DNA of 64,000 bases from Candidatus Hydrogenedentes bacterium UBA2224 (GCA_002348185.1 DDYW01000181.1:77531-141530); one strand, 5' to 3'; shown: positions 8,925 through 64,000, counted from the stretch's first letter. Translations and numbers: made by a program. Notes: generated by a model not told the origin, from the letters alone.

Positions 8925-9278
8925 GCTCTCTCTCTGAACCTTCGCGGGATGAACCGCCGAAGGCGGATACACGACTCAATCGGCAAAACGCCGGGATAGT
9001 AAATTTGGCAGAAAGTATAGATTGACCGGATCGGCATATCAATTCCTCCACCCAGCGCGGCGTCCGAAGACCCAATCGCGGGGCAGGCACGGGCAGGCGG
9101 AGGATGATGCCCTGGACCGCAAGTGCCCCAACGATTCACGGTGCGCTCAGCCCTCGAATCCGGCTCCAGCGTCAAGCCCATTGGAATGCCCCAACCCCTG
9201 CCGATACAATAACCCCAGCAGAAACCCCAGCAGAGACCCGCGCATGTGGGGCGGAGTCTCCCGTGCTGTGTCCTCTGG

Positions 9279-24435: not shown

Positions 24436-25679
24436 GATTCATCCACGCCGAAAATGCTGGCCAGATCGCGCACGTGCGTCTCCCCCTCTTCGATAACAGT
24501 CTGCAGATCATCGGGATTGAGATTCAGATGGTCCCACGCCTCCACAAACATCGGCGGCGCCGCCCGATCGCCGCTGCGCCCGATACACACCGCGTTGGCG
24601 ATCATTTCCGCGACGTGGGCGATGCACACGTCGACGTTCAGATCCCGGCTCGACAGCGGCCCATGGTGGCGGCGCACCGCCTCGCGGTGGCTGGACGGCA
24701 GGTTCCATGATTTCAACAGCGCCTCGCCGACGTCAGCGTGCGTGAAACCGAACATTTCCTTTTCCACATCGCATACCGGCCGGCCCGACTCCGCGGCAGT
24801 GTCCAGGGTCGCGCGCGCCCTTCGGGGAGCTTCCGAAAACATGACCAGACGCCCGACGTCGTGCAACAACCCCATCACGAAACAGCGTTCGGTATTGGCC
24901 CCACCCCGGAATTTGCCGAGCATCCGCGCCACGGACCCGCAGAACAGGCTGTGCAGCCAGAACTGACTCATGTTCACTACGCCGCGCAACGAGCGGTCAA
25001 AGACACTCGTTACCGACGTCGCGAGGGCCAGTTCGCACAGTTCGTTGGTGCCCACGATCGTCGTGGCCCGCGAAACCGTCTCGACCCGGCCCGGAAACCC
25101 ATAAAACGCGCTGTTGACAATCCGCAACAGCCGCGCCGTCAACCCCACGTCCTTGCTGATCACGTTGGCGACGTCCGTGGCCGAACTCAGGGGATGATTC
25201 ACCACCTGGATCAACTCGTGGTACACCATCGGAAGCGAACCGAGCGTGCCGACCGCCTTTACCATCTCCGCGGCCGTCCGTGCCCGCGGTTCTCCCACGA
25301 CGGAAACCACCTCCACTGGAACCGGCGCTTCTTCTTTTCGCTGAGTCATCTCCTCACGAGCAAAGCGATTGGCCACGTGGGAAAGCAGCGCCTCAAAAAA
25401 CGGATGGGGCAGCTGGTCCCGGTTGAGCAAAAAAATGGCCGTCGCGCGTTCCTTCCCGCGTTCCAGCGCCTCTTTCGAGACCGGCACGGCCGGCTTCACA
25501 CTTGCATCATCCTCAGGGCCGCGGATGTGGAGTAAGGTAATGCCCCAAAGCTGGAGCGCGCTGATGTGTTTTTCGGTCAGCACCGTTCCCTCGGGAATGA
25601 GGAGCTGTCCGCGCGGGTTGGTCACATCCCGGCCAAGCACCATGCCGGCCGTGACGTCTCGTCGGCTCATGCGGGGCAT
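24432..25679 (-). CDS. HDOD-domain signalling protein with DUF3391-like N-terminal domain
   Basis: The N-terminus resembles DUF3391 (GMVLGRDV..G.LLIPEGTVLTEKHISALQLWGI..L.I). The HDOD core has LPMVYHELIQVVNHPLSSATDVANVISKDVGLTARLLRIVNSAFYGF and GLLHDVGRLV. Its stop overlaps the GGDEF start by 4 nt. Confidence 0.7.
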   Translation of the reverse strand: MPRMSRRDVTAGMVLGRDVTNPRGQLLIPEGTVLTEKHISALQLWGITLLHIRGPEDDASVKPAVPVSKEALERGKERATAIFLLNRDQLPHPFFEALLSHVANRFAREEMTQRKEEAPVPVEVVSVVGEPRARTAAEMVKAVGTLGSLPMVYHELIQVVNHPLSSATDVANVISKDVGLTARLLRIVNSAFYGFPGRVETVSRATTIVGTNELCELALATSVTSVFDRSLRGVVNMSQFWLHSLFCGSVARMLGKFRGGANTERCFVMGLLHDVGRLVMFSEAPRRARATLDTAAESGRPVCDVEKEMFGFTHADVGEALLKSWNLPSSHREAVRRHHGPLSSRDLNVDVCIAHVAEMIANAVCIGRSGDRAAPPMFVEAWDHLNLNPDDLQTVIEEGETHVRDLASIFGVDES

Positions 25680-29682: not shown

Positions 29683-29763
29683 GTCGGGAATCTGTTAAAT
29701 CCCTCCTGGAACCCGCCCGCTGAAGGCGCCTGTTGCATAACAATGACCGCTGGGGGGAAGAAA

Positions 29764-31182
29764 ATGCCGCGATTCCATGGCGCTGCACGCCGATGGGGCG
29801 CCCTGGTGGGGGTGTGTTTGCTCCTGGCGCTTCTGGCCGCGGTCGACTATCACCTGAAACACGCCGGAGACGGCGCCGGGTTTCATCCTTCCGGGGCGTC
29901 GTGCGTCTTGGTGTCGTCGGACTTCCCGTCGTTCTGCGCGGAACTCGCGGATACGGACGCCGCGGCCCGCTTTCTCTCCGAGACCCCGCGCCCGTTTGAG
30001 GCCTTCGAACTCGCGGTCCGGAAAGCCACCGGCGTGCGCCCCACGCCGTTGCGCTGGGCCGTCTGGATGGGACCGCGCGTCGTGGGGGCCCGGTGGCACG
30101 GGTCCCAGGGGATCTGCGCGCATCCGGGGCTGCTTCTCCGCGCCGTGCACGCCTGGCGATTTGCGTGGGGAGCACGGCCGGACAACTTCGGGGTGTATGC
30201 CTGTGCCGGACATTTCTACGCCTGGCGCGACGGCTTTCTGCTCGTCTCATCCTCCCCGGAATACGTGAACGCCGCACTCGATTCGCCTCAGGTCGACGCG
30301 GTGCCCGAAGGCAATGACAACAGTCTGATGGTTCGATGGAACGGCGGGGACATCCGCATCCATCCCCAGCCGGGCCTCCCCGTCGACGGAACGCTGAACC
30401 TGCCCTTCCAGTCCACGGGCGAACCACTGCAGCTGGCGGACGCATGGCCCGACGACGCGCTGCTGACGTTGAGCACGTCCACGCCTGAGGACGCGCTTCT
30501 CTTCTGGAAAACCGCCGTGCGTCCCTTCGAATCTAACGCCACCTATGCCCGCTGTGCTCATCTGGTCGCGTCTCTGTGGCAGCAATGGGCGCTGGGGGCG
30601 CCCGACGAAGGCTGGACGGGCCGGATCGGCGAGTTCTCCGTCGCCGTGACCGGCGTGGACGCCCTGGCGACCGTCCCCGTACCGGCATGGGGAGTCAGAA
30701 TGCGGCCCCGAACGCAGGAAAGCGTGCAGGCCGAACATCCGTGGCTGCCCGTGCTTGCTCCGCTTGCGCCGATTGAATACGCCTGGGACGGACGCCCGGG
30801 ATGCGTCGCCACCTTGATGGGAGAACGCGCAGCGGTCTGTCTCGCGGGCGATCGCGCGACCTGGCTCGCAACGAGCCAGCCGGCCCTCATGAGCGAACTC
30901 CTGGCCATCGAAGCCCGCGAACCCCATGCCGACGCCGATGCGATGCTCACCATCCACTGGAAGACCGCCGGGAAAACGGCCGAAACGCTGCTCAAGAGGG
31001 CCGGGGAACTGGAACTCATCCCCGAGATGAATGACCAGGAAGCCGACGCCTATCTTGGCAAATACGCGCGGTCCGTAGCGCACCTCGGCCGTCTCCGGAT
31101 CATCGGCCGGGCCCGCGACGGCGTCATCGCGTTTGAGGGCACCCTGGTGGCGCCCGCAGAGGAGGGCATTGCGCAACCATGA
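29764..31182 (+). CDS. hypothetical N-terminally membrane-anchored protein
   Basis: GGGGGGAAG lies 4 nt upstream of the ATG. A single N-terminal TM helix (WGALVGVCLLLALLAAV) is followed by a roughly 440-aa Trp-rich extracytoplasmic domain. The stop overlaps the next gene start. Confidence 0.5.
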   Translation: MPRFHGAARRWGALVGVCLLLALLAAVDYHLKHAGDGAGFHPSGASCVLVSSDFPSFCAELADTDAAARFLSETPRPFEAFELAVRKATGVRPTPLRWAVWMGPRVVGARWHGSQGICAHPGLLLRAVHAWRFAWGARPDNFGVYACAGHFYAWRDGFLLVSSSPEYVNAALDSPQVDAVPEGNDNSLMVRWNGGDIRIHPQPGLPVDGTLNLPFQSTGEPLQLADAWPDDALLTLSTSTPEDALLFWKTAVRPFESNATYARCAHLVASLWQQWALGAPDEGWTGRIGEFSVAVTGVDALATVPVPAWGVRMRPRTQESVQAEHPWLPVLAPLAPIEYAWDGRPGCVATLMGERAAVCLAGDRATWLATSQPALMSELLAIEAREPHADADAMLTIHWKTAGKTAETLLKRAGELELIPEMNDQEADAYLGKYARSVAHLGRLRIIGRARDGVIAFEGTLVAPAEEGIAQP

Positions 31183-33209
31183 GACTCCTCTTCACCCTCG
31201 GCATCATCCTGGCATACACAGCGTTCCTGGCATCCGGGGACAGCGGCGCAGCGGACCTCCTGACCGAGGCCTTCGGACCGCTTGACGCCGGGGACGCTCT
31301 CGGGAACGGCGGATTGACGGTCACCTTCAGCACCACGGGCCGCATCGCCGCCGTGCATTGGCCGAGCCCGGGCTATTTCGAGCAACTCTCCTATGTGGTG
31401 CGCACCGGGGAACGGGGAAGCCTCTCCGTCCCGGAAGGGCAGGGCCTGTGCTGGGCGGCCCGCGTCGGCGAGGCGTTCACCTGGGAACTCGATGACGATT
31501 TCGAACGCTGTCTGCAGGGCCGGCCGACCGTGGAGCGCATGTCCTGTTCTCCGGCGGAACCGCAGCCGGCCTGCATCGTGGGCGGCGGGGGCAAGACGGG
31601 GACGCCCTCGTTCTTTGTGCATGGAGAACGAGATATCCTCGTCGCCCGCTTTGAGCCGGTGGGGGGCGGGTCGCCGGCCAGGGTGTACTGGTGTGCGAAT
31701 TTCACGCCCTGCACCCGTCGAATCCCGGAATGGCCAGGCGCCGACAGCCTGTTCGACTACGCCAACGATTTCGCGTTGTTTACCCCGGATAATGGCCGCA
31801 CCATCGTCCATTTTCGCCCGGAAGAGCCCCGGGGCACGGACTGGAATGATGCGCGCACGCTGGCGGAGGAAGGCGGCCAGGCGACCGGGTGGCGGGATTT
31901 CGACGAGGGCGTCTGGATTGCCCAGAGCCCGGCCGAACCGGCCACCGCTTTTCAATGCGGCGTGTCCGGTACAGCATCCTCCGCCTTTGCACAGGTGAAG
32001 GCCGGTGTTCTTGACGGACAGACCGCCGCGGTGGGCGACTGCGATTCCGCGTTCGAGTTCACGTGCGCCCCGCCGGCCACCGGCGGAGCGACCGTGCCCG
32101 TCACCGTATACATCGCCTTTGGCAACACCTATGCCGCGGCGGCCCAAAACCTCGACTACGCCCGCGAGCGGGGATACGACGCGTTGCTGCGCGAGACGGC
32201 CGAGCACTGGAACAGCCGTCTGAGTCCGTCCGGCCCGCAGACACAAGCGCAGGAGCGGCTGCTCGAGGTGCTCCAGACCTGCATGGACCGCGAGACCGGC
32301 GCGCTGGTCCGCATGCCGCTCGCCTCCCCCCCGCTGCACGTGGACGTTCCCCGCACGGGCGTCATCGGCGCGTATGCCCTGTCTATCGCGGGACGCCACG
32401 ACCTCGTCAGAAAACGCATCGACTTCTATCTCAACGCGCTGCGCACGCAGAACGCACCGGGCTGCCCGGCCGGCTCCCTGCCCGCGGGACTCTATGCCAG
32501 CGGCGACGAAGCCGTGCCCGGGTTGATTCTCGATGTCGAAGCCGTGGCCTGGCTGCTATGGCTCTGCGAACGCCACGCGGCCGCCTTGTCTCCGGAAGAG
32601 CGCGCCGCATTCATCGACGCGGCCTGGCCCCGGCTCGAGCTGGCCGCGGAATTCCTGTCAGGCTGGTTCGACCCCCGAACGGGGCTGCCGCGCACCGCGT
32701 TCAACCCTCAGACCCTTCGCGACTCGCAATCGCCCGAACTCGCCATCCGCACCCACATGGGACTGGTCAGCGCGCTGTCCCTGGCGGCATCGAAAGGAGA
32801 GGAACGCTCGGAATGGCGAAAGCGGGCCCAGGACCTCGAGGCCCTGATTCGCGCACGGTACATCGGACCGGACGGATTCTGGCAGGTGAACCGGCCCGAA
32901 CGTTTCTGGAACATCCCTCTGGTCCCTGCCAACCATCCGCAGTGGCAAACCACGCTGGATGCAGCACTCGACAGTCTCGCGACCGACACCATTTCCCCGG
33001 ATCGGGCAAGCGAGATCCTCTTCGCGGCGATGCTGATCCCACCGGCCCGGGCGGGCGTCAAAGAAAAGGCCATTCACCTGCTGCAGACAGGCCGCTTCGT
33101 CCGCGTAGGGCCCCTGCCACAGGACACCGGTTCCTGCGCGCCGGACAGCTACCGGGCTGCTCTGCACTACGTCGCCTGGACAGAGGCGTTGCGCGTGACC
33201 GGCCCCTGA
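31179..33209 (+). CDS. secreted hypothetical protein, possibly (alpha/alpha)6-toroid glycosidase-like (676 aa)
   Basis: The signal peptide is MRLLFTLGIILAYTAFLASG. It overlaps the upstream gene by 4 nt. The fold guess is weak. Confidence 0.5.
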   Translation: MRLLFTLGIILAYTAFLASGDSGAADLLTEAFGPLDAGDALGNGGLTVTFSTTGRIAAVHWPSPGYFEQLSYVVRTGERGSLSVPEGQGLCWAARVGEAFTWELDDDFERCLQGRPTVERMSCSPAEPQPACIVGGGGKTGTPSFFVHGERDILVARFEPVGGGSPARVYWCANFTPCTRRIPEWPGADSLFDYANDFALFTPDNGRTIVHFRPEEPRGTDWNDARTLAEEGGQATGWRDFDEGVWIAQSPAEPATAFQCGVSGTASSAFAQVKAGVLDGQTAAVGDCDSAFEFTCAPPATGGATVPVTVYIAFGNTYAAAAQNLDYARERGYDALLRETAEHWNSRLSPSGPQTQAQERLLEVLQTCMDRETGALVRMPLASPPLHVDVPRTGVIGAYALSIAGRHDLVRKRIDFYLNALRTQNAPGCPAGSLPAGLYASGDEAVPGLILDVEAVAWLLWLCERHAAALSPEERAAFIDAAWPRLELAAEFLSGWFDPRTGLPRTAFNPQTLRDSQSPELAIRTHMGLVSALSLAASKGEERSEWRKRAQDLEALIRARYIGPDGFWQVNRPERFWNIPLVPANHPQWQTTLDAALDSLATDTISPDRASEILFAAMLIPPARAGVKEKAIHLLQTGRFVRVGPLPQDTGSCAPDSYRAALHYVAWTEALRVTGP

Positions 33210-33218
33210 CAAACGAGG

Positions 33219-37054
<3,836 letters not shown>

Positions 37055-37448: not shown

Positions 37449-38372
37449 CTACATGTTGTTTACGGCAGCCACGAAGCACGCCCACAGCCGGTGACCGGGA
37501 TATGCGTCGGCCGGGTAGCGCATGAACTCGACATGGCCGTCCATGTAAAGCACGTTGCCACCGCCGGGGACGTGGTTAAAGTTGTCGACTTCCGATGAGA
37601 AGATGTCGTAGAAGATGGGCAGTTCACTCTGGGCCTTGGCGGCTCCGGATGGGTTATTGATGTCGGTTACCATGAACCGCTCGATGCCTTCCCGAAGGCG
37701 GTACGCGGTCTTCGGGCCGACGGCGAGGTCCGCATCCATGAGCGCGGCCGCCTGCTGGACGGTCCCGCCCGTCATTGCGTTCGTGACCAGGGCGGTGATC
37801 AAGTTCACCAGACCGTTGTAGAGGTTGATGTTGAGGTAGCCGCCCGCCACCACGGTGTCCATGGTGATGCCCGCGTCGTTCACGTTGATGCCGGGGGTGG
37901 CGATCAGCTCGTCGGTGAGCGCCCAGGGGACGTAGACATACGAGAGGTCATCGAAGCGGCAGGGGGAGATGGGCAGATCCGGATCGCTCTGCTCATTCCA
38001 CCGGCCTTTGGCCATGGCGCTCTTGCCGTCTTCATCCGAGGGGCAGACGAGAATGTTGGCGTCCGTGAGGTATTCCGGGTAAATCTCACTACCCTGCATC
38101 ATGAAACCGATGCCGCCGATTTCGTTGCAAAAGATCCCGTTGGCCTCGTCTGCCGTGTTTGAGTCCGCATACTTGCCGTTGGGGAATTTCTCGCCTTTGG
38201 ATTCGTTGGCATACATCTTCAGCATGAGACCGACTTGTTTGAGGTTGTTGGCGCAGCTGGCCCTGCGGGCAGCTTCCCGTGCACGGGCAAGGGCGGGCAG
38301 GAGGATGGCTGCAAGAATGCCGATGATCGCGATTACAACCAGCAGTTCAATAAGCGTAAATCCTTTTTTCAT
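37449..38372 (-). CDS. prepilin-type N-terminal cleavage/methylation domain protein, DUF1559 (H-X9-DG) family
   Basis: The N-terminus [46 protein letters not shown] is a class III signal plus a conserved DUF1559 lead-in. The C-terminus has [17 protein letters not shown] (H-X9-DG). AAAGGGAGAAT lies 8 nt upstream of the ATG. Confidence 0.85.
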
Positions 38373-43947: not shown

Positions 43948-44262
43948 CGGGCCCCGCGCGTCAGGCTCGCACCCAGCCGCAAACGCCCGCTCAAACACGC
44001 GCTCGGCCAGGACGTTTCATGACCCGGGAGATTCCCGCACTAAGTCCATGTGGCACGCACGTTTCGCGCAGCGCGCCCTTGCCATGCGCCCGCGATTTCG
44101 GGCATACTGGCCACGGGGCGGTCATTACGCGTATGTCAGGACCGCAAGCAGCAGGAATGCACCGGGAACGTTCTCTGAGAGGCGCCCTCAAACGCGGGGC
44201 CTGCGGTGGGAAGCCGCCGTGTTGACTCTCCAGACACGGCCACGGGAGATTGGGGTGTCGCA

Positions 44263-44736
44263 ATGCAGTTAGAGACAGTACGGTTCGGGTCCCTCGAAGT
44301 GGCTCCGGATGCGGTGATCACATTCACGCAACCCATCCTGGGCTTTCAAGAGTATCGCCGTTTTGTGGTCCTCCCGGGGCCGAGCGAATATCTGTGGTGG
44401 CTTCAGTCGACGGAGTCCGGCGATCTCGCCTTCATTCTGATGGATCCCGCGGTGGTAGTTCCAGATTACCGCGTTGAAATCCGGCCTGCCGAACTCAGCG
44501 AGCTGGCCGTCGCCTCCATCGGCGAACTTGACGTCTATACACTGGTGGTCGTGCCCGAGGACAAGAGAAAAGTGCGCACCAATCTCCGGGCGCCCATTCT
44601 GATCAACCCCAAGCTGCGGCTGGCCAAACAGGCGCTCCTGGACCGCAGCGACTACCCCATTCAATTCTTCCTCGCGCAACCCCATCAGGGCCAGGGACAG
44701 GCCCGGGAGGCATCCAATGCTGGTCTTAACCCGTAA
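44263..44736 (+). CDS. fliW: flagellar assembly factor FliW (CsrA antagonist)
   Basis: [43 protein letters not shown] and AKQ are present. Length is 157 aa from the internal Met (track ORF from 44206). GGGAGATTGGGG lies upstream. Confidence 0.8.
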
Positions 44737-44938
44737 AGAGGATGAAAGCATCATGATTGGGGACGACATCGAGGTCAAAGTCCTTGATCTGAAAGAAAGC
44801 CAGGTGAAATTGGGAATCGTCGCCCCAAAGTCCGTGGCCGTGCACCGGCGGGAGGTCTATCTGGCCATCCAGAGCGAAAACACGCAGGCGGCCTCCGCGG
44901 CGCAGATCGACTCCATCACGGATCTGATTCAGCGATAA
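44717..44938 (+). CDS. csrA: carbon storage regulator CsrA
   Basis: [25 protein letters not shown]...[19 protein letters not shown] is present. Length is 73 aa with the longer C-terminal tail typical of FliW-regulated CsrAs. It overlaps fliW by 20 nt. Confidence 0.9.
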
Positions 44939-44960: not shown

Positions 44961-45587
44961 ATGGAACTCATCGTAGACGGAAGCGCCAGAGGCCTCGGAG
45001 AAGAGCCCCAGGGCAGTATCTTCGACCTGGTGGTCGCGCTCGGCAGGCAGCTTCAGGAGGACGGCCGTTCCATCATGACCGTCCGAATCGACGGAAGCGA
45101 GATCAGCGCCGGAAACCTGGTGGAATCCATGCGAGACAAGCCGGTGACAAGCGTCCGGCAGATCGTGATCACTTCGGAAGACACCCGGACGCTGGTGAAC
45201 GAGTCCCTGTCGGACATGCAGGCCTCGCTGCCCGAGCTTCCGGTGGCGTGCCAGGAACTGGCCCGAGTGTTTCAGAGCGAGACGCCGGACGCCGGCTACG
45301 AGCCGTTCCAGCAGCTTGCGGCGATATGGGGCGCCATCAAGGAGCGGGAACTGATGGTCGCGAACGCCCTCGAGATCTCGCTGGAAGAACTCCTGATCGG
45401 CGAACTCACGGTCAAACAGTTTCATGATGATCTCAATGCCTATTTGCGGGAAGCCACCGAAGCCCTCAAAAAGAGGGATTCGGTGTTGTTGGGGGACCTG
45501 CTTGAATACGAACTGGCGCCACGGGCCGAAAAAGAGAGCGCGATCGTCGCGATTCTGATGAAAGAGGCCGAACAATTTGCGGGGTAG
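44961..45587 (+). CDS. hypothetical acidic protein (208 aa), no recognisable domain
   Basis: It lies between csrA and the glycosyltransferase genes. The next gene starts 2 nt after its stop. Confidence 0.5.
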   Translation: MELIVDGSARGLGEEPQGSIFDLVVALGRQLQEDGRSIMTVRIDGSEISAGNLVESMRDKPVTSVRQIVITSEDTRTLVNESLSDMQASLPELPVACQELARVFQSETPDAGYEPFQQLAAIWGAIKERELMVANALEISLEELLIGELTVKQFHDDLNAYLREATEALKKRDSVLLGDLLEYELAPRAEKESAIVAILMKEAEQFAG

Positions 45588-45589
45588 GA

Positions 45590-48500
45590 ATGGCCGCGCC
45601 GCGCATCCTGACATTCAATTTTCATGAGCCTTACCTGTGCCTGATGGCGCGGACCGGCCTGCCCTTTGCCATCGGTGAATATGACAGCCCCCCCTTCGCG
45701 CGGAAATGGCACGAGCGCTACCGCCCCATCCCTCCGAACTTCACGTTTCTCAACGAAAACACCTGGCGACGCGACCTTGCGCAGGGCCGCTTCGACGTCG
45801 TCATCGCGCAAAACGAGATGAATGCGGCCGGCCTCTCCAAAGAGGCGCTGCTCAGCGACACCCCCCTCCTTCTGGTCTGCCACAACCGGCGCAGCTTCCT
45901 CGAAGCAACCATGAAGAATGGCCCCGACAGCCGCTACGATACGTTTCAGCGCCTCCTGGAAACGCTCCGGAGAATTGCCCGGTTTGTGTTCATCTCTGAG
46001 ACCAAACGTGATGATTACGCCATCCCGGGCATCGTCATCTGCCCCGGCATCGACGTCGAGGAATACGGCGGCTATACGGGAGAAAACCCGGGGGTGCTGC
46101 GCGTCGGCAACGCCTTGGGCCAGCGGGACGTCATGTTCGACGTCGGCTTTCAGGAACGGGTATGTGCCGGTTTTGCCAACCGCCTCGCGGGCGACAATCC
46201 GGACATCCCGGAGTCCCAGCCGGCCGCGTCCTTCGATGACCTGCGCCGGCTCTATCGCTCCTTCCGGTGCTATCTGCACGTCACCCGGGAAGCCTACGAG
46301 GACGGCTACAACCTCGCCCTGCTCGAAGCCATGGCCACAGGCATGCCGGTGGTCTCTCTCGCGAACCCGACATCTCCCCTCACGGACGGGAAAGACGGTT
46401 TTCTGTCGTACGACGCCGATGTCCTCCGGGGCCACATCGCTATGCTGCTCGATGATCTGTCCTGCGCCCGGGAGATCGGCGCTCGCGCCCGTGAAACCGT
46501 CGCGCAGGCGTTTCCCATGGCCCCCTTCGTCGAGGCCTGGCGCGAAACCATTCTGTCGGCCGCCGAACTCAGCCCCCGGCAAAGCACAAGGACCCGGACA
46601 CGCATCACGCCGCCTCCCCTGCCAACTACCGCCGTGCCCGCGACGGAGATCCTCCTTCACTACATGGCGTCGCCGGTCACCACGGGAAGATATTTTGAGT
46701 GGGCCCTGCGCAAACGCCATCACGTCGTCACCGCGGGGTTCCGGTGCCCGGAAGCGATTCTAAGCCGGTGGGGATTTCCGGGCGAACCGCCCGCGTACGG
46801 TCCCCACGACGTGGAACTCAGGCTCGAGACGCCCTACCGGGAACTCATGGGCATGCTGCCAGACGGATTTGCGCCCCGTCTGTACCTCTGGGTGGATTCC
46901 GGCCCGAAACAGGTGGCGCCCGACATCGACTGCCTGCGCATCCCGAAAGCCTGTTACCTCATCGACACGCACCTGGCCCCCGAATTGCGCATCGACATCG
47001 CCCGGCATTTCAATTTCGTGTTTCTGGCGCAGAAAGCCCAAGTGCCGCTCTTCCAGGACGCCGGCCTCGCAAACGTCTGCTGGTTGCCGCTCGCGTGTTC
47101 ACCCGAGCTGCACGACGTGGGACAACCCGAACGCATCTACGACGTGGCCTGTATCGGCCGGATTCAGGATGACCCCCACGACCGCCGCGCCAGGATTCTC
47201 GACCGCGTACGCAGCGCGTTTCCCCGGCACCGCATCGGCCAGCAATGGCCCCCGGACATGGCGCGAACGTATGCCCAGTCGAAGATCGTCGTGAACGCGG
47301 CCGTCAACAACGACCTCAACATGCGCGTATTCGAGGCGATGGCGTCGGGCGCGCTCCTCATTACTGACCGCGCGGAAGGCCTGTTGGACCTCTTCGAGGA
47401 AGGCGAACATTTCGTGCTCTACCGCGATGAGGATGAGCTGTGCCCGCTCATCGAGCGCTACCTCGCTGACCGCGAGGCGCGGGAACGCATCGCGCAGCAG
47501 GGGCGAGACCTCGTGCTTGCGCAACATACGTACGACCTGCGCATGGAGCAATTACTCGGATGCGTATTCGAAGCCGCGGGCGTGTTCGGCGGCTACCGCG
47601 GGGAATCCCGGTACCACTACGGCGGCTACTACTGCTCCCCGCGCGCGGAACTGGCGGTCCATGTCCCCCCGGGGGCGAAGCGCGTCCTCGACGTCGGGTG
47701 CGGGGGCGGCGCGTTCGGACGATCGCTGAAAGAGCGCGGCGTACAGGAGGTCGTCGGGATCGAGATTGACGAGCGCGCGTGCGCCCTCGCCAGGGAAGTG
47801 CTTGATGACGCCCTCGCCGGCAACATCGAACAGATGGAACTGCCTTTCGAACCCGGGCACTTCGATTGCGTCACGTTCGGGGATGTGCTTGAACATCTGG
47901 TTGACCCGGCGGCAACGCTGCGCAGGATTGCGCCGTTCCTCGCCCCGGAAGGCCTTGCGGTCGCCAGCATCCCCAACGCGCGTTTCTGCCAGGTGGTGCA
48001 GATGCTTGCCGAAGGCCGGTGGAAATACGAAGATGCCGGCATCCTCGACCGGACGCATCTGCGGTTCTTCACCGCGACGGAAATGCAGATGCTTTTCCAG
48101 GGGGCGGGCTACGAGATCCTGAAGATGCTGCCCCTCTCGATGCTTCAGGCGGAGCTCCTTCCTCGCAACGCTGACGGAGGTTTCACGCTCGGCAAACTGA
48201 CCGTCGGCCCCTTAAATGACGCGGAGTATCAGGATTTTCTCGTGTACCAGTACCTCGTCGTCGCACGGAGCGCCGCCGGGACGCCGCTGGAACGCGCACG
48301 GGCCGCGTTGTCCGAAGGCCGTTTCGAGGAGGCCTGCACCCTGGCCGCCTCGGCCGCGAACGCGGACCCCACCGAGCGCAAGTTCATCATCGGGCAGGCG
48401 CTGGGCCGGCTTGGAAAACTCGAGGCCGCCGAATCGGCCTTGCGCGAAGCCTGCGCGTCCAGCCCCGCCCGCGCGGACATCGTCGGGCAACTGGGGGTGC

Positions 48501-48928
48501 TGCTGGTCGCCATGAACCGAAGCGCCGAGGCCATCCCCTGTCTGGAGCAGGCCGTTGCCGCCAACCCGGGGGACCACCGCGCCCTCGGCGCCTGGGGTCT
48601 GGCCCTGCTCGCCAGCGGCAACCCCGAAGAGGCCTTCACGAAGCTCAGGGCGTCTCTGGAGATTCACTTCGATAACGCGCCGCTCATGGACTCCTTTGCC
48701 GCCCTCGGCGAAACGCTGGAACGATGGTCGGATATGGAGCCGGTGCTTCGCCGGTTTGTGGAGTTTTACCCCGCAAACACCGCCATGTCGCTGCGCCTTG
48801 CCCGCATTCTGGCCCGGCTGGGAAAAACCGGCGAGGCGCGCGAGCGCTTGGAAACCGTGCTCTTGTTCGACACCGGTAACGCAGACGCGCGTCAGTTGCT
48901 TGAAGAAATTTCGTCCGGGGGCGCATAA
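45590..48928 (+). CDS. multidomain enzyme: GT4 glycosyltransferase + CgeB-like glycosyltransferase (Glyco_trans_1_2) + class I SAM methyltransferase + C-terminal TPR repeats
   Basis: GT4 has EDGYNLALLEAMATGMPVV. The CgeB-like domain has NMRVFEAMASGALLITD...LYRDEDEL...AQHTYDLRMEQLL. The SAM-binding motif is VLDVGCGGGAFG with post-I FDCVTFGDVLEHLVDP. The tail is TPR-like Ala/Leu repeats. It is one 1112-aa ORF. Confidence 0.8.
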   Translation: MAAPRILTFNFHEPYLCLMARTGLPFAIGEYDSPPFARKWHERYRPIPPNFTFLNENTWRRDLAQGRFDVVIAQNEMNAAGLSKEALLSDTPLLLVCHNRRSFLEATMKNGPDSRYDTFQRLLETLRRIARFVFISETKRDDYAIPGIVICPGIDVEEYGGYTGENPGVLRVGNALGQRDVMFDVGFQERVCAGFANRLAGDNPDIPESQPAASFDDLRRLYRSFRCYLHVTREAYEDGYNLALLEAMATGMPVVSLANPTSPLTDGKDGFLSYDADVLRGHIAMLLDDLSCAREIGARARETVAQAFPMAPFVEAWRETILSAAELSPRQSTRTRTRITPPPLPTTAVPATEILLHYMASPVTTGRYFEWALRKRHHVVTAGFRCPEAILSRWGFPGEPPAYGPHDVELRLETPYRELMGMLPDGFAPRLYLWVDSGPKQVAPDIDCLRIPKACYLIDTHLAPELRIDIARHFNFVFLAQKAQVPLFQDAGLANVCWLPLACSPELHDVGQPERIYDVACIGRIQDDPHDRRARILDRVRSAFPRHRIGQQWPPDMARTYAQSKIVVNAAVNNDLNMRVFEAMASGALLITDRAEGLLDLFEEGEHFVLYRDEDELCPLIERYLADREARERIAQQGRDLVLAQHTYDLRMEQLLGCVFEAAGVFGGYRGESRYHYGGYYCSPRAELAVHVPPGAKRVLDVGCGGGAFGRSLKERGVQEVVGIEIDERACALAREVLDDALAGNIEQMELPFEPGHFDCVTFGDVLEHLVDPAATLRRIAPFLAPEGLAVASIPNARFCQVVQMLAEGRWKYEDAGILDRTHLRFFTATEMQMLFQGAGYEILKMLPLSMLQAELLPRNADGGFTLGKLTVGPLNDAEYQDFLVYQYLVVARSAAGTPLERARAALSEGRFEEACTLAASAANADPTERKFIIGQALGRLGKLEAAESALREACASSPARADIVGQLGVLLVAMNRSAEAIPCLEQAVAANPGDHRALGAWGLALLASGNPEEAFTKLRASLEIHFDNAPLMDSFAALGETLERWSDMEPVLRRFVEFYPANTAMSLRLARILARLGKTGEARERLETVLLFDTGNADARQLLEEISSGGA

Positions 48929-48977: not shown

Positions 48978-50762
48978 ATGATGAAGCCCGCACGAGAATG
49001 GATGGCGGAACTCGCGGAGGTCGTGCCGCCCCCGGATGTGTGCCTGGAGGAGGGGCGCGAAGGCGAACCGACCCTGCGTATTGGCACTGCCTATCTCCAC
49101 AGCCGCTACAAACCCCGCGAAGAAGCCAAACGCCTGCTCGACTCCGCGGAGCTGGACCCCGACCGTCCGGTGCTTGTCGTCGGCGTGGGTCTGGGTTATC
49201 ACATCCTGGAGCTTCTCGACCGCGGATACCGCGTTGCCGTGGCCGAACCCGACCGCGCCATTGCCGCCCTGGCGGTGGGGGGACTTCTGCGTGATCGCGA
49301 GGTTCTGCTGGGCATAGGCGAGCCGGACGCGATCGCCGCCTCTCCCTTCTTCCAGCGCTTCGTCCGCGATACCCCGCAGGTATTCGTGCATCCTCCGTCC
49401 GCCCGCATCCAACCGGCATTCGCGGAAGCGATGACGGCCCGGGTATCGCGTGCCGCGCTGCTCGGACAGCGCCTGAGAATCGCCGTCGTGGGCCCGATGT
49501 TCGGCGGGTCCCTGCCCATTGCCGGACATCTGGTCCGCGCGTTCCAGAAGCTGGGCCATCAGACCGTCTATGCCGACAACAGCCTGGCCTGGAACCTCTA
49601 CGAGACCATGAGTGCTTCGGTGAAATCGCGCAAGGCCGCCCATCAACTGGGCGAACTCCTCGTCCATTTTCTGGGGGAATGGTCGTATGCCCGGGTCATG
49701 GAATTCGCGCCCGACATCTGCGTGGTCATGGCGCAGGCCCCGGTCTCGCCCCAGTTCCCGCTTCGACTGGCCCCCGAGGGCATCGTCACGGCGTTCTGGT
49801 ATGTCGAGAACTGGCGGCACCTGCCGTATTGGAAAGAGCTTGCGCCACACTACGACTTCTTCTTCCACATCCAGCCCGGCGCCTTCGAGACCCAGCTCCG
49901 CGAGGCGGGATGCCAATATCAGGCCTGTGTACTGACGGGCTGCGACCCGGAGGTGCACCGCCCCGTAACCCTGGAAGACGCGGAACGCGACGAGTTCGCC
50001 TGCGACGTTTCCTTCGCGGGAGCGGGTTACATGAACCGGAACCAGGTGCTGGCCGGCCTCACGGACTATGCCCTGAAAATCTGGGGCGTGAACTGGGCCC
50101 ATCCCTCCCTCCGGCCCGTCCTTCAACGCCCAAACGAGCGATTCACGCCTGAATTGTTCGCGAAAATCGTCGCAGGCTCGAAGGTCAACCTGAACCTGCA
50201 TTCGAGCACGAGTTTCCCGGGCGTGGATCCCCATTGCGACGCGATTAACCCCCGCGTGTTCGAGATCGCCGCCTGCGGAGGGTTCCAGCTCTGCGACCCG
50301 TGCACAGGGCTTGACGCCTGCTTTGATTTCGCCACCGAGTTGCCCGTCTACACGTCGCTGAAGGAGTTACGGGACAAAATCGACTATTATCTCGCCCATT
50401 CCGCCGAACGCGCACAGATCGCCGCGGCTGCCCGCGCTCGCGCACTCCGCGACCACACCTACGAAAAACGCGCCGCGCAGATGCTCGAGCGGATACTCGA
50501 TGCGTTCGGCGCGCGCATTCTTCGGAAAGGCATCCGGGTGCAGCGCACGGTCGCCGAGATCAAAGACCGCTGCGCAGAGGATGCCGCCCTGGCGGCCTTC
50601 CTCGATACCCTGCCGTCCGATGCGCTGTTCGACCACGAAACCGTAAATGCGCACCTGCCCACGGCCATGATGGCCCACAACCGGGCCGAAGGGCTGTTCG
50701 CTTACTTGAGGGAGTTGCGCAACTCAGCCGAAGCGCTTCTCCAACTGCGGGACACGGAGTGA
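48978..50762 (+). CDS. Maf-like (DUF115 / MptE-like) protein fused to CgeB-like glycosyltransferase domain
   Basis: The N-terminus has YLHSRYKPREEAKRLL...VLVVGVGLGYHILELLD, which I recognise as the motility-accessory-factor/DUF115 pattern. The C-terminus has NPRVFEIAACGGFQLCD...DHTYEKRAAQMLE, the Glyco_trans_1_2 pattern. The domain calls are from memory, not from a search. Confidence 0.6.
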   Translation: MMKPAREWMAELAEVVPPPDVCLEEGREGEPTLRIGTAYLHSRYKPREEAKRLLDSAELDPDRPVLVVGVGLGYHILELLDRGYRVAVAEPDRAIAALAVGGLLRDREVLLGIGEPDAIAASPFFQRFVRDTPQVFVHPPSARIQPAFAEAMTARVSRAALLGQRLRIAVVGPMFGGSLPIAGHLVRAFQKLGHQTVYADNSLAWNLYETMSASVKSRKAAHQLGELLVHFLGEWSYARVMEFAPDICVVMAQAPVSPQFPLRLAPEGIVTAFWYVENWRHLPYWKELAPHYDFFFHIQPGAFETQLREAGCQYQACVLTGCDPEVHRPVTLEDAERDEFACDVSFAGAGYMNRNQVLAGLTDYALKIWGVNWAHPSLRPVLQRPNERFTPELFAKIVAGSKVNLNLHSSTSFPGVDPHCDAINPRVFEIAACGGFQLCDPCTGLDACFDFATELPVYTSLKELRDKIDYYLAHSAERAQIAAAARARALRDHTYEKRAAQMLERILDAFGARILRKGIRVQRTVAEIKDRCAEDAALAAFLDTLPSDALFDHETVNAHLPTAMMAHNRAEGLFAYLRELRNSAEALLQLRDTE

Positions 50763-50766
50763 CGGC

Positions 50767-52461
50767 ATGCGTATCCTGGTAGCCCAGATGACCCGCATGG
50801 GAGACATGCTGCAGAATTCCACCCTGACCCGCGCGTTGCGCCAGCGCTACCCTGACGCCCACATCACCGCGATGGTGCGGCCCCTGGCGCGCGGTATCGC
50901 TGAACGCAATCCCGACATCGACGACATCATCCTGTACGAGGAAGACGCGATGTTCTGCGATTTGCGCAGCCGCGATTCGGACCGCTTGCTCCGCGCCTAC
51001 CGGAGCGCCGCCGCGCTGGTCGACGACCTGAACGCGCGCCGGTTCGACGTCGTCTACAACTGCACGCTCAGTATCGCTTCGGCCATGTTGCTGAAACTGG
51101 TCCGCGTCCCGCGGACCATCGGGGCGCATCTCAGTGACGACTGGCGTTTCGTGCTTCGTGGACGCTGGACCAACTACTTCTTCACCAGCGTGTATCAGCG
51201 CGCGTACAGCGACATCAACATCAGCGATGTCTTCCGCAATCTCATGGAGGACGCGCCGCCCGTCTCCGGGCTCAGTCTGGCCATCACGGACGATGACCGC
51301 CGCGAGGCGCGGGAGATTCTCGCCAGGCATGGCGTCCGCGAGCGGGATTTCGTGGTCTGCATGCAACTCGGGGCCAGCGACACGTCCAAGCGCTGGCCCG
51401 TTGCCCAGTTCGCGGAACTGGCGCGCCGCCTGGCCGCTGAGAAGAACGCGAGAATCTGCCTGCTGGGCGTGGAATCCGAAGCCCCGCTGGGAGACGCCTT
51501 CGAGACCCAGGCGCCGGGGCTCGGCATTCACCTTTTTGGCAAGACCACCATTCCGCAACTGGCCGCCCTCCTCGAGTCCGCGCGCGTGCTGGTCACCAAC
51601 GATACGGGCACCATGCATGTTGCCGCGGCCGTGCGCTGTCCGATTCTCCTGCTGTCGGTGGGATACGTTCATTTTCGCGAGACCGGCCCCTACGGCGAAG
51701 GCCATCTGGCGCTCGAACGCCGGAAAGACTACCTCGCCCCCATGAACAAAGACGAGACGTCCGCCGACGAGCGCGGCGCCATCCCCCCCGGACCCGTGAC
51801 GGACCTGCTCGAACTGCTGCTCGCTCCCTCCCCGGAGGGGTGCATCCCTTCCCTGCCCGACTCGCCCGAGTGGGCCAGCCTCGACGTCTATCAGTCCCGG
51901 TTTGCCCCGGACGGCTTTCTCGAGTGGTATCCGGTGATTCGCCGTCCCATGACCGAGACCGATTTCCTGCGTGTCGCGTACCGCAACACCTGGATCGCCC
52001 ATCTCTGCCCCTCCGTTTCCCGCGAGACGCTTCTCGACGGGATTCGGCGGGTCGCGGCCTGTTTTGCGCCGGACGGCACGGCCGCGCTCGAGGGTTGGCA
52101 TCAACACTGGAGCGCGGTCTTCCGCCAACTGGAACAGCTCGCACGGCAGGGAAGCCAGAAGACGGAACAACTCAGGGCCTGCCTCCGCCACGGCAGGAAC
52201 ATCGCCACCGCCCGGGAGATTGTGGGCGAGCTCATGCGGCTGGATGAAGACACGCGCCTCTTCGCGGAGTTGAACGGGGGATGCCGCCCGCTGATCAGCA
52301 TCGCGCGTTTCCAGCGCGACAATCTCGAGGGGGCCGACCCGATGCCGCTTGCGGAAATGACGCAGGAGATCTACCGGGAACTTTCCGAGCGCGCCGCGCT
52401 GATGCGGGCGCACTTCGACGCCATCCGCGTCGCCATGCATGCCGTGGACACGGAGACCTAG
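50767..52461 (+). CDS. GT9-like glycosyltransferase (heptosyltransferase family) with about 230-aa C-terminal extension
   Basis: The N-terminus is MRILVAQMTRMGDMLQNSTLTRALRQRYPDAHI. The later GKRWP and VTNDTGTMHVAAA motifs are typical of GT9. The start is 4 nt after the Maf-like stop. Confidence 0.7.
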   Translation: MRILVAQMTRMGDMLQNSTLTRALRQRYPDAHITAMVRPLARGIAERNPDIDDIILYEEDAMFCDLRSRDSDRLLRAYRSAAALVDDLNARRFDVVYNCTLSIASAMLLKLVRVPRTIGAHLSDDWRFVLRGRWTNYFFTSVYQRAYSDINISDVFRNLMEDAPPVSGLSLAITDDDRREAREILARHGVRERDFVVCMQLGASDTSKRWPVAQFAELARRLAAEKNARICLLGVESEAPLGDAFETQAPGLGIHLFGKTTIPQLAALLESARVLVTNDTGTMHVAAAVRCPILLLSVGYVHFRETGPYGEGHLALERRKDYLAPMNKDETSADERGAIPPGPVTDLLELLLAPSPEGCIPSLPDSPEWASLDVYQSRFAPDGFLEWYPVIRRPMTETDFLRVAYRNTWIAHLCPSVSRETLLDGIRRVAACFAPDGTAALEGWHQHWSAVFRQLEQLARQGSQKTEQLRACLRHGRNIATAREIVGELMRLDEDTRLFAELNGGCRPLISIARFQRDNLEGADPMPLAEMTQEIYRELSERAALMRAHFDAIRVAMHAVDTET

Positions 52462-59911: not shown

Positions 59912-60934
59912 TCACGGCGAATACTGGTACCCGTCGCTGAGAATCTCTTGCGTGCAGCAATACAGCCAGGAACCGGTCGGCTGCGGATACCGCGCCCATT
60001 CGACGTGGCCATCCATGCACAGCACATTGGCGCCGCCCGGAACATGGCAGAAGTCCTTGCCGCCTTCCGAGATGCCGCCGGCGGGACCCGATGTGCGGAT
60101 CGTGTCCCACATGGCGATGATCTGGGATTGCGCGCGGCTGCTGCTCGCCGGGTTGTTGATGTCGGTGATGAAGAACCGTTCAATGCCTTCACGCAGATGG
60201 TACAGCGTGACGGTCCGGCCATCGGAAGGCAGCGTAATGCTGCCGTCCTGGTAGGCCATCATCCAGCAGCCCATGCCGGACGCACTGGGCGTGCCGCTGT
60301 TGTATCCGTTGTGCAGGTACGTGAAGACGGCAGCACAATCTACCTGCGTCTCCAGCGCATCCGGTGGAATGGCCACCGCCCAGTAGGCATACGACCAGTC
60401 GGGCAGGTACGGATAGCAGGTCGTCGGCGTGCAATCGGTCCCCACAACCGGGTACGGCAGATTGGACACAGGATTGGGCTGCATCACCCGCAAATCCCAG
60501 TTGTCGCCGACCTGCCGCCACACCCCGTTGGTGGGTTGCCCGGCCGGCTTGTCGTAGGGCCATTCGCTCGATTCGGGCCAATACTTCCCCGGTCCGGAAT
60601 CCACATCCGAGGGACAGAACCAGATGGCGAGATCCGTCGCATATTCAGGATACAGTTCCGGCACGTTCAACCCGTGCCACACCCGGACATTGTCGCCATT
60701 GATCGCTTCGGTAGGTGTGTTATCGTAGCGCACCGTCCGGCATACCCACTGGTCGCGGTGTTCGGCGGCAAACATCTTGTGAATCAGCCCGAACTGCTTC
60801 AGATTGTTCTGGCAACTCGCCCGCCGCGCCGCCTCTCTCGCGCGGGAAAGCGCCGGCAAGAGAATGGCCGCGAGTATGCCGATGATGGCAATGACCACCA
60901 GCAGTTCAATTAACGTAAACCCATGCCGTTTCAT
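59912..60934 (-). CDS. prepilin-type N-terminal cleavage/methylation domain protein, DUF1559 family (paralog 2)
   Basis: [47 protein letters not shown] is present. The C-terminus has [17 protein letters not shown]. Confidence 0.85.
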
Positions 60935-62831: not shown

Positions 62832-64000
62832 TTACGCGAGCAGTTGCCGGATGGCTTCGCGGAACGCGCCCTCCGAGTCCGGCCGGAGGAGGGATGCCGT
62901 GGGCTCGTAGCCCCCCTCGTCGTACGCGGAAGCCGTGCAGATGTACCCGGGCGCACAGTCGCCATAGCCCGAGACCGCCACAAATTCGGTGGCGCGCTGT
63001 TCTTTGGCGAAAAGCTGATATTCGACCATCGGTTCACCCGGCAGGTGGGCAATGTGCACGTTGCCCATGTGCAGCGCGCTCACCTCGATCGGCCGCGCGC
63101 TGCGGACGCGGTAGGCCAGACTCATCGCGCCGCCCGTGCGCACGCTGTCCGGCTTCTTGACGTCGGCCATCTGCGCCCGGCTGTCCGCTTCCGTATACCC
63201 GGGGTCCTCGCGCACGCTCAACGGAAATGCCGCCGTGGTCCAGGTGATGCCCGACACCGGCGCGAGAACGGGGGCGGCGCACGAGGCCTTCATCGCGGCA
63301 TAAATGCGCTCATAGAGTCCCTGCCGCGCCTCGGGCGTCCCGTCGTTGTATTTCCCCGCGGCGACGTTGCCCGCACACCCGGTGAAGTAGACCTGGAACG
63401 CGCCTTCTTCCTGTTCGAGACGCTCACGGGCCATCCCGACGAAATCGTAACTGGCACGGGGATCGCCATAAAAACTCTGGGGGTGCGTCGCATAGTAATG
63501 CAGCCTCGTCACGGGATGGCCATCCCTCACAAATGTGATGGTCTGCAGCATCGGATCGATCAGGCCCTCGGGCATCGCCCGAACCTTCTCGTCGCGGCAC
63601 GAACTCCCCCGGAAACCCACCTTGCCTTCGCCCACGGGGACTCGGCGGTTCGAAGCGACCTGCTCGACCTTGGCCTGGCTTGTGCCAATCGCGTCGACCG
63701 GCACAAAGTTCCCCATGGCGCCCCGGACCGCCTCGCCGAGGGTCGCCGCGGCCGCCTCAAACACTTCGTTGGACGGATACGCCGGCGGCGGATTGACGCT
63801 ATCGATAAACGGGCGCGCATCCGCGTCGCCCATGGGCGCGGTGTGTTGATGGACGGTCTGCACGGCCACGTGCGAAACGCTGGTATCCGCGCTTTGCGCC
63901 ACGGCCTGCCGGAAGGCGTCATAGGTCGAATTGCGCAGTTCGCACCAGTCCACGGCGCACAACACATACCGGTCGTCGCCCTCCTCGATAACCACGCCTT
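62832..64000 (-). CDS. neutral ceramidase-like paralog (C-terminal about 390 aa; N-terminus beyond window end)
   Basis: VQTVHQHTAPMG and YFTGCAGN have the same arrangement as the upstream paralog. The ORF is open to the window edge. Confidence 0.5.
   Translation of the reverse strand, partial: GVVIEEGDDRYVLCAVDWCELRNSTYDAFRQAVAQSADTSVSHVAVQTVHQHTAPMGDADARPFIDSVNPPPAYPSNEVFEAAAATLGEAVRGAMGNFVPVDAIGTSQAKVEQVASNRRVPVGEGKVGFRGSSCRDEKVRAMPEGLIDPMLQTITFVRDGHPVTRLHYYATHPQSFYGDPRASYDFVGMARERLEQEEGAFQVYFTGCAGNVAAGKYNDGTPEARQGLYERIYAAMKASCAAPVLAPVSGITWTTAAFPLSVREDPGYTEADSRAQMADVKKPDSVRTGGAMSLAYRVRSARPIEVSALHMGNVHIAHLPGEPMVEYQLFAKEQRATEFVAVSGYGDCAPGYICTASAYDEGGYEPTASLLRPDSEGAFREAIRQLLA

Follow-up and report, generated by a model that had tools for sequence, protein, structure and literature searches.

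What does a bacterium modify with a polypeptide in which two glycosyltransferases (GTs), a methyltransferase and an array of tetratricopeptide repeats (TPRs) follow one another in a single reading frame? The question is raised by a gene, referred to here as the target, in a 64,000-nucleotide stretch of DNA from Candidatus Hydrogenedentes bacterium UBA2224 (GCA_002348185.1 DDYW01000181.1:77531-141530), referred to as the window. The best-supported reading is that the target encodes a signature component of a conserved glycosylation module of flagellar loci. We estimate at about 0.6 the probability that its product acts in the cytoplasm, where it would assemble a glycan of flagellin and O-methylate it, the TPR tail serving as an optional docking module. 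The glycosylation module is made up of the target, a second CgeB-like GT with orthologs that bear a Maf-N-type domain at their N-terminus, a GT9-like GT and, in most cases, a small DUF8042 protein; it shares an operon with fliW and csrA in Hydrogenedentota and recurs beside flagellar gene clusters in other lineages.

A four-module polypeptide

The gene and its modules are given below in the coordinates of the window, with lengths in amino acids (aa).

45590..48928, plus strand: target gene, a fusion of four modules (GT-B, GT-B, S-adenosylmethionine (SAM)-dependent methyltransferase, TPR), 1112 aa plus stop, ATG start
45590..46564, plus strand: module 1, GT4-like GT-B glycosyltransferase, aa 1-325 (Pfam, AlphaFold2, Foldseek, conserved motifs)
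46637..47575, plus strand: module 2, CgeB/YkvP-like GT-B glycosyltransferase (PF13524), aa 350-662 (Pfam, AlphaFold2, conserved motifs)
47615..48274, plus strand: module 3, class I SAM-dependent methyltransferase, aa ~676-895 (Pfam, profile, Foldseek, conserved motifs)
48278..48919, plus strand: module 4, TPR array of 13 helices, about six repeats plus a cap, aa ~897-1110

According to the initial annotation, a single uninterrupted open reading frame (ORF) encodes two GTs, followed by a SAM methyltransferase and TPR repeats, and this is borne out by Pfam, by the AlphaFold2 model, by full-length homologs and by three assemblies. The peptides on which it drew are located in the protein at aa 246-255 (EAMATGMPVV), 577-593 (NMRVFEAMASGALLITD), 644-651 (AQHTYDLR), 699-710 (VLDVGCGGGAFG) and 765-773 (DVLEHLVDP). 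The guanine-plus-cytosine (GC) content by codon position is 0.69/0.46/0.80, which agrees with that of the other genes of the window and is typical of coding sequence, in keeping with the consistent coding composition that had been asserted. Moreover, three contigs that were assembled independently, each from another sample, encode the identical 1112-aa protein, and more than 120 homologs of about 1100 aa (48-90% identity) span its full length with all four modules kept. As the initial annotation had supposed, the target is thus not a frameshift product, and an assembly artefact is ruled out. In databases, the members of this family are named 'glycosyltransferase', 'CgeB' or 'UbiG-like methylase'.

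The AlphaFold2 model, built with 26 homologs as input, resolves four folded modules, as had been anticipated, with a mean predicted local distance difference test (pLDDT) score of 87 and disordered linkers at aa 331-347 and 666-673; since the predicted template modelling score is low (0.41), the mutual placement of the modules is undefined. The two GT domains can also be delimited through homologs in which they are separate, a check proposed with the initial annotation. When aa 1-665 were searched against 1.8 billion representative proteins, 496 clusters were recovered at E <= 1e-30. About 40 of the top matches consist of one stretch spanning both GT domains, and the top matches also include many stand-alone proteins corresponding to aa 5-322 (310-340 aa long) and many corresponding to aa 353-659 (300-360 aa long), which sets the GT domain boundaries and makes the fusion modular.

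Pfam matches lie above cut-off for the GT4-like, CgeB-like, methyltransferase and TPR domains alike, as the proposed architecture required. Residue conservation was read from the alignment of the 26 homologs (~50% identity), in which each of the three enzymatic modules keeps its catalytic-type motifs with little or no variation. In module 1, Glyco_trans_1_4 matches aa 216-289 with 60.4 bits (cut-off 27), and the N-terminal half matches Glyco_transf_4 below threshold (24 bits vs 28.5, aa 40-157). The model shows two Rossmann-like halves (aa 6-134 and 166-325, pLDDT mostly >85), and the Foldseek matches for the GT modules are the GT4 enzymes MshA, BshA, PglA and GlgM. Invariant residues comprise H98-N99, R171-x-G-N174, E237-D-G-Y-N-L and L245-E-A247. 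The element E237-D238-G-Y-N-L-x-x-L-E246 is invariant, with a spacing of EX8E, or of DX7E when counted from D238, as opposed to the canonical EX7E, and no second acidic residue is found at +8 from E246.

Module 2 is matched by Glyco_trans_1_2 with 141.4 bits (cut-off 25) at aa 533-656, covering model positions 2-143 of 144, and a complete GT-B fold is predicted for it. Residues G587-A588, H646 and Y648 are invariant, and N577-M-R-V-F-E582 is nearly so. A full-length homolog from Hydrogenedentes (P0110) has a strongly diverged second GT (columns ~400-640 of the alignment) that has lost NMRVFEA and carries a deletion at about aa 385-400, while its remaining three modules are intact; this second GT may be inactive.

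Module 3 is assigned to the class I methyltransferases by Methyltransf_23 (88 bits, aa 681-844), by Methyltransf_11 (63 bits) and, with Methyltransf_23 set aside, by four class I models in all that also match. The profile of the homolog alignment finds 3cc8, a putative methyltransferase of B. cereus, in the Protein Data Bank (PDB) with E 1.7e-60 over aa 671-891, and Foldseek retrieves the same structure with TMt 0.84 and 35% identity. Among solved structures, this protein (BCE_1332) comes closest to module 3. It is a stand-alone structural-genomics protein and, as it was deposited only as a putative methyltransferase, gives no hint on the methyl acceptor. Invariant positions include D701-x-G-C-G705, E725, D765-V-L-E-H769 and T822-H-L-R-F826. 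Motif I lies in VLDVGCGGGAFG, where D701, G703, C704 and G707 are invariant, and E725 is the invariant acidic residue. The NCBIfam matches to this module (DVU_1556, UbiG, BioC) are all far below cut-off.

Finally, module 4 is matched above cut-off by TPR_19, TPR_2, TPR_16 and TPR_8 at aa ~940-1030, with weaker matches up to 1090, and its modelled helices run from 899 to 1109. In the PDB, the profile picks up the TPR domain from O-GlcNAc transferase, together with designed consensus TPR proteins.

The fliW-csrA operon of Hydrogenedentota

The target occupies the fourth place in a close-packed run of six co-directional genes, in the order fliW, csrA, DUF8042 gene, target, CgeB-like GT and GT9-like GT, with spacings of -20, 22, 2, 49 and 4 nt. 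The other elements of this operon are as follows.

44079..44108, plus strand: promoter-like element TTGCCA-18-CATACT (CATACT at 44103), from a consensus scan, upstream of fliW
44263..44736, plus strand: fliW (Pfam FliW, 113 bits), a 157-aa gene in the identical contigs
44717..44938, plus strand: csrA, 73 aa (Pfam CsrA, 90 bits), with a 20-nt overlap with fliW
44961..45587, plus strand: DUF8042 protein, 208 aa (PF26154; faint TP0873_N matches)
48978..50762, plus strand: second CgeB-like glycosyltransferase, 594 aa (Glyco_trans_1_2, 117 bits)
50767..52461, plus strand: GT9-like (heptosyltransferase-family) GT, 564 aa, with a C-terminal helical extension (Glyco_transf_9, 85 bits)

In the window, the operon is flanked by dnaE upstream and by a convergent recN-like gene downstream. 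The longest ORF of fliW starts from GTG at 44206, and homologs favour ATG at 44263. No transmembrane-like segment was found in any of the six proteins, which fits cytoplasmic action.

This cassette is a phylum-wide operon in Hydrogenedentota. A scan of one genome per species gave 206 relatives, from which 80 loci were fetched. All 47 assessable loci of the Hydrogenedentota type carry fliW, csrA and the DUF8042 gene upstream of the target, and 38 of 40 carry the CgeB-like and GT9-like GT genes downstream of it; the outer flanks differ from locus to locus (dnaE, ileS, a thiamine pyrophosphate enzyme and others). The target does not act on its own, which corrects the initial annotation: it belongs to a conserved module together with the CgeB-like GT, the GT9-like GT and the DUF8042 protein. 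Upstream of fliW, the 8-mer TGCATACT (in the window GGCATACT, which lies within the promoter-like element listed above) is present in 37 of 48 loci of this type despite the differing upstream gene, and it is probably the -10 region of a promoter belonging to the operon itself. No sigma-28 or sigma-54 promoter consensus was found upstream of fliW.

The DUF8042 protein is modelled with a pLDDT of 90 as a small N-terminal alpha/beta domain followed by a C-terminal helical bundle (helices at 75-207), and the last helix bears an invariant acidic patch. The protein may function as a chaperone or an adaptor. Homology to FliS, FliT or GlfM was rejected: the protein has no significant fold match in the PDB and resembles generic four-helix bundles only.

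The 594-aa GT aligns end to end with its Dissulfurispiraceae ortholog (33% over 580 aa) and matches DUF3880 below threshold (22 bits). Its orthologs carry Maf_flag10_N (PF20157), strongly in Dissulfurispiraceae (L087) and faintly in L086 and L089; the Pfam scan found no match to this domain in the 594-aa GT of the window itself, whose N-terminus gives a weak PDB profile match to 5mu5 (E 0.38) and weak matches to methyltransferase Rossmann folds. The 564-aa GT9-like protein aligns end to end with its Desulfofervidus ortholog (E 5e-49), and the DUF8042 protein is weakly related to its counterpart there (27% identity, E 5e-5).

The Hydrogenedentota-type fliW-csrA-DUF8042 cassette was also met in records titled 'uncultured Nitrospiraceae/Nitrospirales' (L009, L013, L014, L016, L024, L028, L030 and L035, and likewise L044-L046, L048, L052, L056 and L057), whose targets are 41-72% identical to that of the window. 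These bins have probably been given wrong taxonomic labels.

Flagellar neighbourhoods and the choice of acceptor

Beyond Hydrogenedentota, a search from a Desulfobacterales homolog found the family in Nitrospirota, Thermodesulfobacteriota, Dissulfurispiraceae, Ca. Desulfofervidus auxilii, Latescibacteria and Firmicutes, with the TPR tail either present (~1100-1180 aa) or absent (~900-1000 aa). Flagellar genes were sought by tblastn in the window and in 90 fetched loci, with proteins of E. coli, B. subtilis, Nitrospirota, Desulfofervidus and Latescibacteria as queries, and were found solely at L070 and L086-L090. Flagellar clusters thus adjoin the module in independent lineages, at L070, L086, L087, L088 and L090. 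In the complete genome of Ca. Desulfofervidus auxilii (L086, CP013015.1), flagellin-fliD-fliS-fliT are followed by the DUF8042, GT9-like and CgeB-like genes and the target homolog. In a Nitrospirota metagenome-assembled genome (MAG; L090), one strand carries flagellin-flaG-fliD-fliS, then CgeB-like GT, target homolog (1166 aa, TPR included), CgeB-like GT, GT9-like GT and DUF8042 genes, and then pilZ-motA-motB. The Dissulfurispiraceae locus (L087) comprises the target homolog, a GT of the Maf_flag10_N/CgeB-like type, the GT9-like GT and the DUF8042 gene, followed by motA-motB-pilZ-motA-motB; in Latescibacteria (L088), the target homolog lies directly downstream of flgK-flgL; and in a Desulfobacterales MAG (L070), the trio of target, CgeB-like and GT9-like genes divergently adjoins flgF-G-A-H-I-J-M-N-K-L-csrA-fliW.

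Some of these loci hold further genes. At L070 (10001-13694), where the target homolog has 960 aa and no TPR tail, an extra 276-aa gene with weak, sub-threshold methyltransferase matches (Methyltransf_23, 23 bits) precedes the CgeB-like GT, and a sigma-54-dependent response regulator follows the trio. The flagellar islands of L086 (12712-22727), L087 (2309-8223) and L090 (3802-8313) contain large TPR-containing radical-SAM/SPASM proteins, fusions of the GT2-TPR, methyltransferase-GT2 and sulfotransferase-radical SAM types, and a UDP-glucose dehydrogenase, a repertoire that suggests elaborate, lineage-specific glycan decoration.

In Nitrospinota, full-length relatives of the target are found throughout (35-40% identity), including in Nitrospina gracilis 3/211 and in a Nitrospina isolate, and the trio stands together in all 21 loci. 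Flagella are encoded in the core genome of this phylum (PMC5029188).

Several observations weigh against a flagellin acceptor. Neither the 64-kb window nor the ±10 kb around any Hydrogenedentota or Nitrospinota locus was found to contain a flagellin or flagellar structural gene. That the cassette-bearing genomes encode a flagellin is suggested solely by the conserved fliW and by a survey of flagellin sequences in which Ca. Hydrogenedentes is named in the phylum list of a figure legend (PMC7018530); beyond that list, the literature search returned nothing on flagella of Hydrogenedentota. The Nitrospinota trio has no fliW, csrA or DUF8042 gene adjacent to it and is flanked by housekeeping genes, none of the 19 assessable Nitrospinota loci having a flagellar neighbourhood, and no flagella have ever been seen in cultures of Nitrospina (PMC5029188). 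Since many other sugar genes lie in the flagellar loci of Desulfofervidus and Dissulfurispiraceae, neighbourhood alone cannot assign the acceptor. Relatives of single modules are also met in contexts that are not flagellar, for instance on a Planctomyces plasmid. Lastly, the TPR tail is absent from the orthologs of N. gracilis, Desulfofervidus, Latescibacteria and L070. The initial annotation suggested an assembly line in which a protein, brought in by the TPR domain, receives a sugar that is also methylated. This idea is plausible, with flagellin as the candidate substrate; the TPR array, being optional in the family, cannot be the sole route of substrate recognition.

The plasmid relative is a 1336-aa 'glycosyltransferase' on pPL62-2 of Planctomyces sp. 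SH-PL62 (L091, 7647-13921), whose CgeB-like plus methyltransferase region shares 42% identity with aa 431-893 of the target. It lies between a GT4 gene and another GT gene, near RHS and transposase genes, in a non-flagellar context. A search of a plasmid collection gave partial, domain-level matches only.

Could the target be a multienzyme for a cell-envelope glycan, such as an exopolysaccharide (EPS), a lipopolysaccharide or a capsule-like polymer, unrelated to flagellin? Its GTs would then extend a lipid-linked or free oligosaccharide, the methyltransferase would cap or decorate it, and the TPR array would act as a scaffold, as in capsule polymerases. The best NCBIfam matches, although far below cut-off, point in this direction, being EPS and PEP-CTERM GT4 families and polysaccharide-export TPR proteins; so do the Foldseek matches to polysaccharide GTs (7qsg) and to the TPR-containing capsule multienzyme 8qoy, the Nitrospinota trio without flagellar neighbours, and the related GT-methyltransferase protein in its non-flagellar plasmid context. 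However, the conserved cassette has no priming transferase, flippase, polymerase or exporter, and the match to 8qoy is poor, with a template modelling (TM) score of ~0.2 and a root-mean-square deviation (rmsd) of 23 Å. The linkage to fliW-csrA in 47 of 47 loci, the flagellar clusters in five other lineages and the Maf-type N-terminal domain of the partner GT orthologs argue further against this reading, and envelope-glycan synthesis is considered an unlikely function.

A protein acceptor other than flagellin may likewise be envisaged, namely FlgK/FlgL, the FliD cap, a protein of the sheath or rod, or some other secreted protein of a filament or of the cell surface. The flagellar genes nearest to the module are flgK/flgL in Latescibacteria and at L070, and motAB in Dissulfurispiraceae, and no flagellin gene is found near the Hydrogenedentota loci; moreover, GT9-fold enzymes of the BAHT family glycosylate autotransporters. 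Nevertheless, the module stands beside flagellin-fliD-fliS in Desulfofervidus and Nitrospirota, and the characterised flagellar-locus systems found in the literature (FlmG, Maf, C. difficile type A/B and Pseudomonas Fgt/VioT) all act on flagellin. The sole known partners of FliW are flagellin and CsrA, which also counts against this alternative, and such an acceptor appears improbable.

It is highly improbable that the target has a mainly regulatory or scaffolding role like that of Listeria GmaR, with at least one inactive enzyme domain and an effect on the FliW–CsrA circuit or on flagellar assembly: its place in an operon with the fliW-csrA regulatory pair, the degenerate second GT domain of P0110 and the variant GT4 motif (E/D-x7-8-E, not canonical EX7E) are outweighed by the near-invariance of the catalytic-type motifs in three enzymatic modules and by the retention of the trio in Nitrospinota, where fliW-csrA is not adjacent.

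Proposed function, known systems and meaning

For the target as a flagellin-modifying enzyme, the following sequence of events may be proposed. New flagellin would stay in the cytoplasm until export, its pool being under FliW–CsrA control in Hydrogenedentota, and the GTs of the module would assemble a short O-linked glycan on it. Each GT-B domain of the target would add one sugar from a nucleotide-sugar donor, and the fused methyltransferase would then O-methylate one of the sugars as the glycan grows. Docking of the target onto flagellin or partner proteins may fall to the C-terminal TPR array, and the DUF8042 protein may serve as an adaptor. More tentatively, and with rather less confidence than the function itself, the GT4–CgeB–methyltransferase(–TPR) fusion, the Maf-N/CgeB-like GT, the GT9-like GT and the putative DUF8042 adaptor could represent an undescribed class of flagellin glycosylation across phyla, distinct from the Maf, FlmG and GT2-type systems. 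No paper describing the target family, or linking CgeB-like or GT9-like enzymes with flagellin, was found in the literature.

Each of the known systems shares some traits with the target. All characterised systems whose genes lie in such positions modify flagellin in the cytoplasm, ahead of its export. FlmG of Caulobacter crescentus and Brevundimonas (PMC7591256) is likewise a soluble cytoplasmic protein that combines TPR and GT-B domains and is encoded with flagellar genes, and flagellin is bound, in FlmG as in Maf-1, by the TPR domain, without which it is not glycosylated (bioRxiv 10.1101/2023.12.03.569772). However, FlmG has an N-terminal TPR domain and a single GT-B, whereas the target has an optional C-terminal TPR array, two GT-B domains and a methyltransferase. 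FlmG, which is restricted to Caulobacterales, transfers pseudaminic or legionaminic acid; unlike in FlmG systems, genes for the synthesis of these nonulosonic acids are absent from the target cassette. Membership of the target in the FlmG family was rejected, as the order and composition of its domains are wrong for it.

In Maf-1 of Shewanella and others, the flagellin-binding TPR is C-terminal, as in the target, and Maf-2 requires a small four-helix-bundle partner, GlfM, which is encoded adjacent to it (bioRxiv 10.1101/2023.12.03.569772), just as a small helical-bundle protein is co-encoded with the target. The likeness between GlfM and the DUF8042 protein is one of shape only, since the latter has 208 aa, an extra N-terminal domain and no detectable homology. 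The GT-A-like catalytic domain of Maf proteins (MAF_flag10/DUF115) is not present in the target, which has no Pfam match to it even at E up to 1 and was not retained as a Maf protein.

The add-then-methylate logic on one polypeptide is shared with the type B flagellin GT2 of C. difficile (CDR20291_0242). This neighbour of fliC, in which a GT is fused to a PF08241 methyltransferase, adds the two rhamnoses of the flagellin glycan and, as its authors propose, also methylates them (PMC5207246). GT2 is a GT-A enzyme (PF00535) of an unrelated lineage in which no TPR is reported, and its sequence relationship with the target is limited to the generic methyltransferase fold; the target, with GT-B domains, is not of this type. 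Module 2 (141 bits) and the 594-aa GT (117 bits) are clear members of the CgeB/YkvP spore-maturation family (PF13524); the context of that family is the spore coat, whereas here it is flagellar and the organisms are not spore formers. The capsule enzyme 8qoy (A. pleuropneumoniae Cps3D) was rejected as an architectural relative on its Foldseek alignment of 822 columns, with the TM score and rmsd given above, and Pfam gave no match in the target to a TagF-like polymerase domain of the 8qoy type. Finally, the target matched no NCBIfam model tied to FgtA, VioT or Fgt1 of Pseudomonas, which are flagellin GTs of ~1170 aa.

Most other genes of the window have housekeeping functions only, according to their Pfam annotation. 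Six ORFs with a coding-type GC content at third codon positions have no Pfam match at E <= 1e-5.

5481..8972, minus strand: ORF, 1163 aa, no Pfam match at that threshold
9246..11789, plus strand: ORF, 847 aa, likewise
29743..31182, plus strand: ORF, 479 aa, likewise
31179..33209, plus strand: ORF, 676 aa, likewise
33219..34661, minus strand: ORF, 480 aa, likewise
62832..63995, minus strand: ORF, 387 aa, likewise

In addition, a DEAD/Helicase_C/MZB (MrfA-type) helicase gene and the adjoining gene of an RNase_H_2-superfamily protein (16170..17438 and 17442..19751, both minus strand) look like an MrfAB-like DNA-repair pair. A GGDEF diguanylate cyclase gene (23335..24435, minus strand) overlaps an HDOD/HD-domain gene (24432..25679, minus strand) about 20 kb from the cassette, and the two are a possible cyclic di-GMP signalling pair. 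Pseudopilin-like genes with an N_methyl prepilin motif and DUF1559 lie at 37449..38372 and 59912..60934, both on the minus strand.

Multi-domain GT fusions are common in bacteria, so that the architecture alone would not surprise a specialist; it is the flagellar linkage across phyla, together with the joining of the module to fliW-csrA in one operon, that makes the target noteworthy, as a worthwhile candidate rather than an extraordinary one. Flagellin glycosylation influences filament assembly, motility, surface chemistry and recognition by the immune system and by phages, and the classes of enzymes understood to carry it out are few, namely Maf, FlmG and the GT2 type of Clostridioides, Listeria and Pseudomonas. 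If the proposed reading is true, these classes would gain a module of GT-B, CgeB-like and GT9-like enzymes that includes an in-line methyltransferase, with a range that covers Hydrogenedentota, Nitrospinota, Nitrospirota, Desulfobacterota-related lineages and Latescibacteria, and a first functional handle would be gained on hundreds of proteins labelled 'glycosyltransferase', 'CgeB' or 'UbiG-like methyltransferase'. The finding also bears on the motility of environmentally important, poorly cultured groups, such as marine nitrite oxidisers and members of anaerobic-digester communities; a more radical possibility is that, in lineages without any observed flagella, the FliW–CsrA–glycosylation cassette acts on a non-flagellar substrate. 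In Hydrogenedentota, the control of flagellin synthesis and the glycosylation of flagellin would be co-expressed from one operon, and the fusion with fliW–csrA provides a testable link between the translational control of flagellin and its modification.

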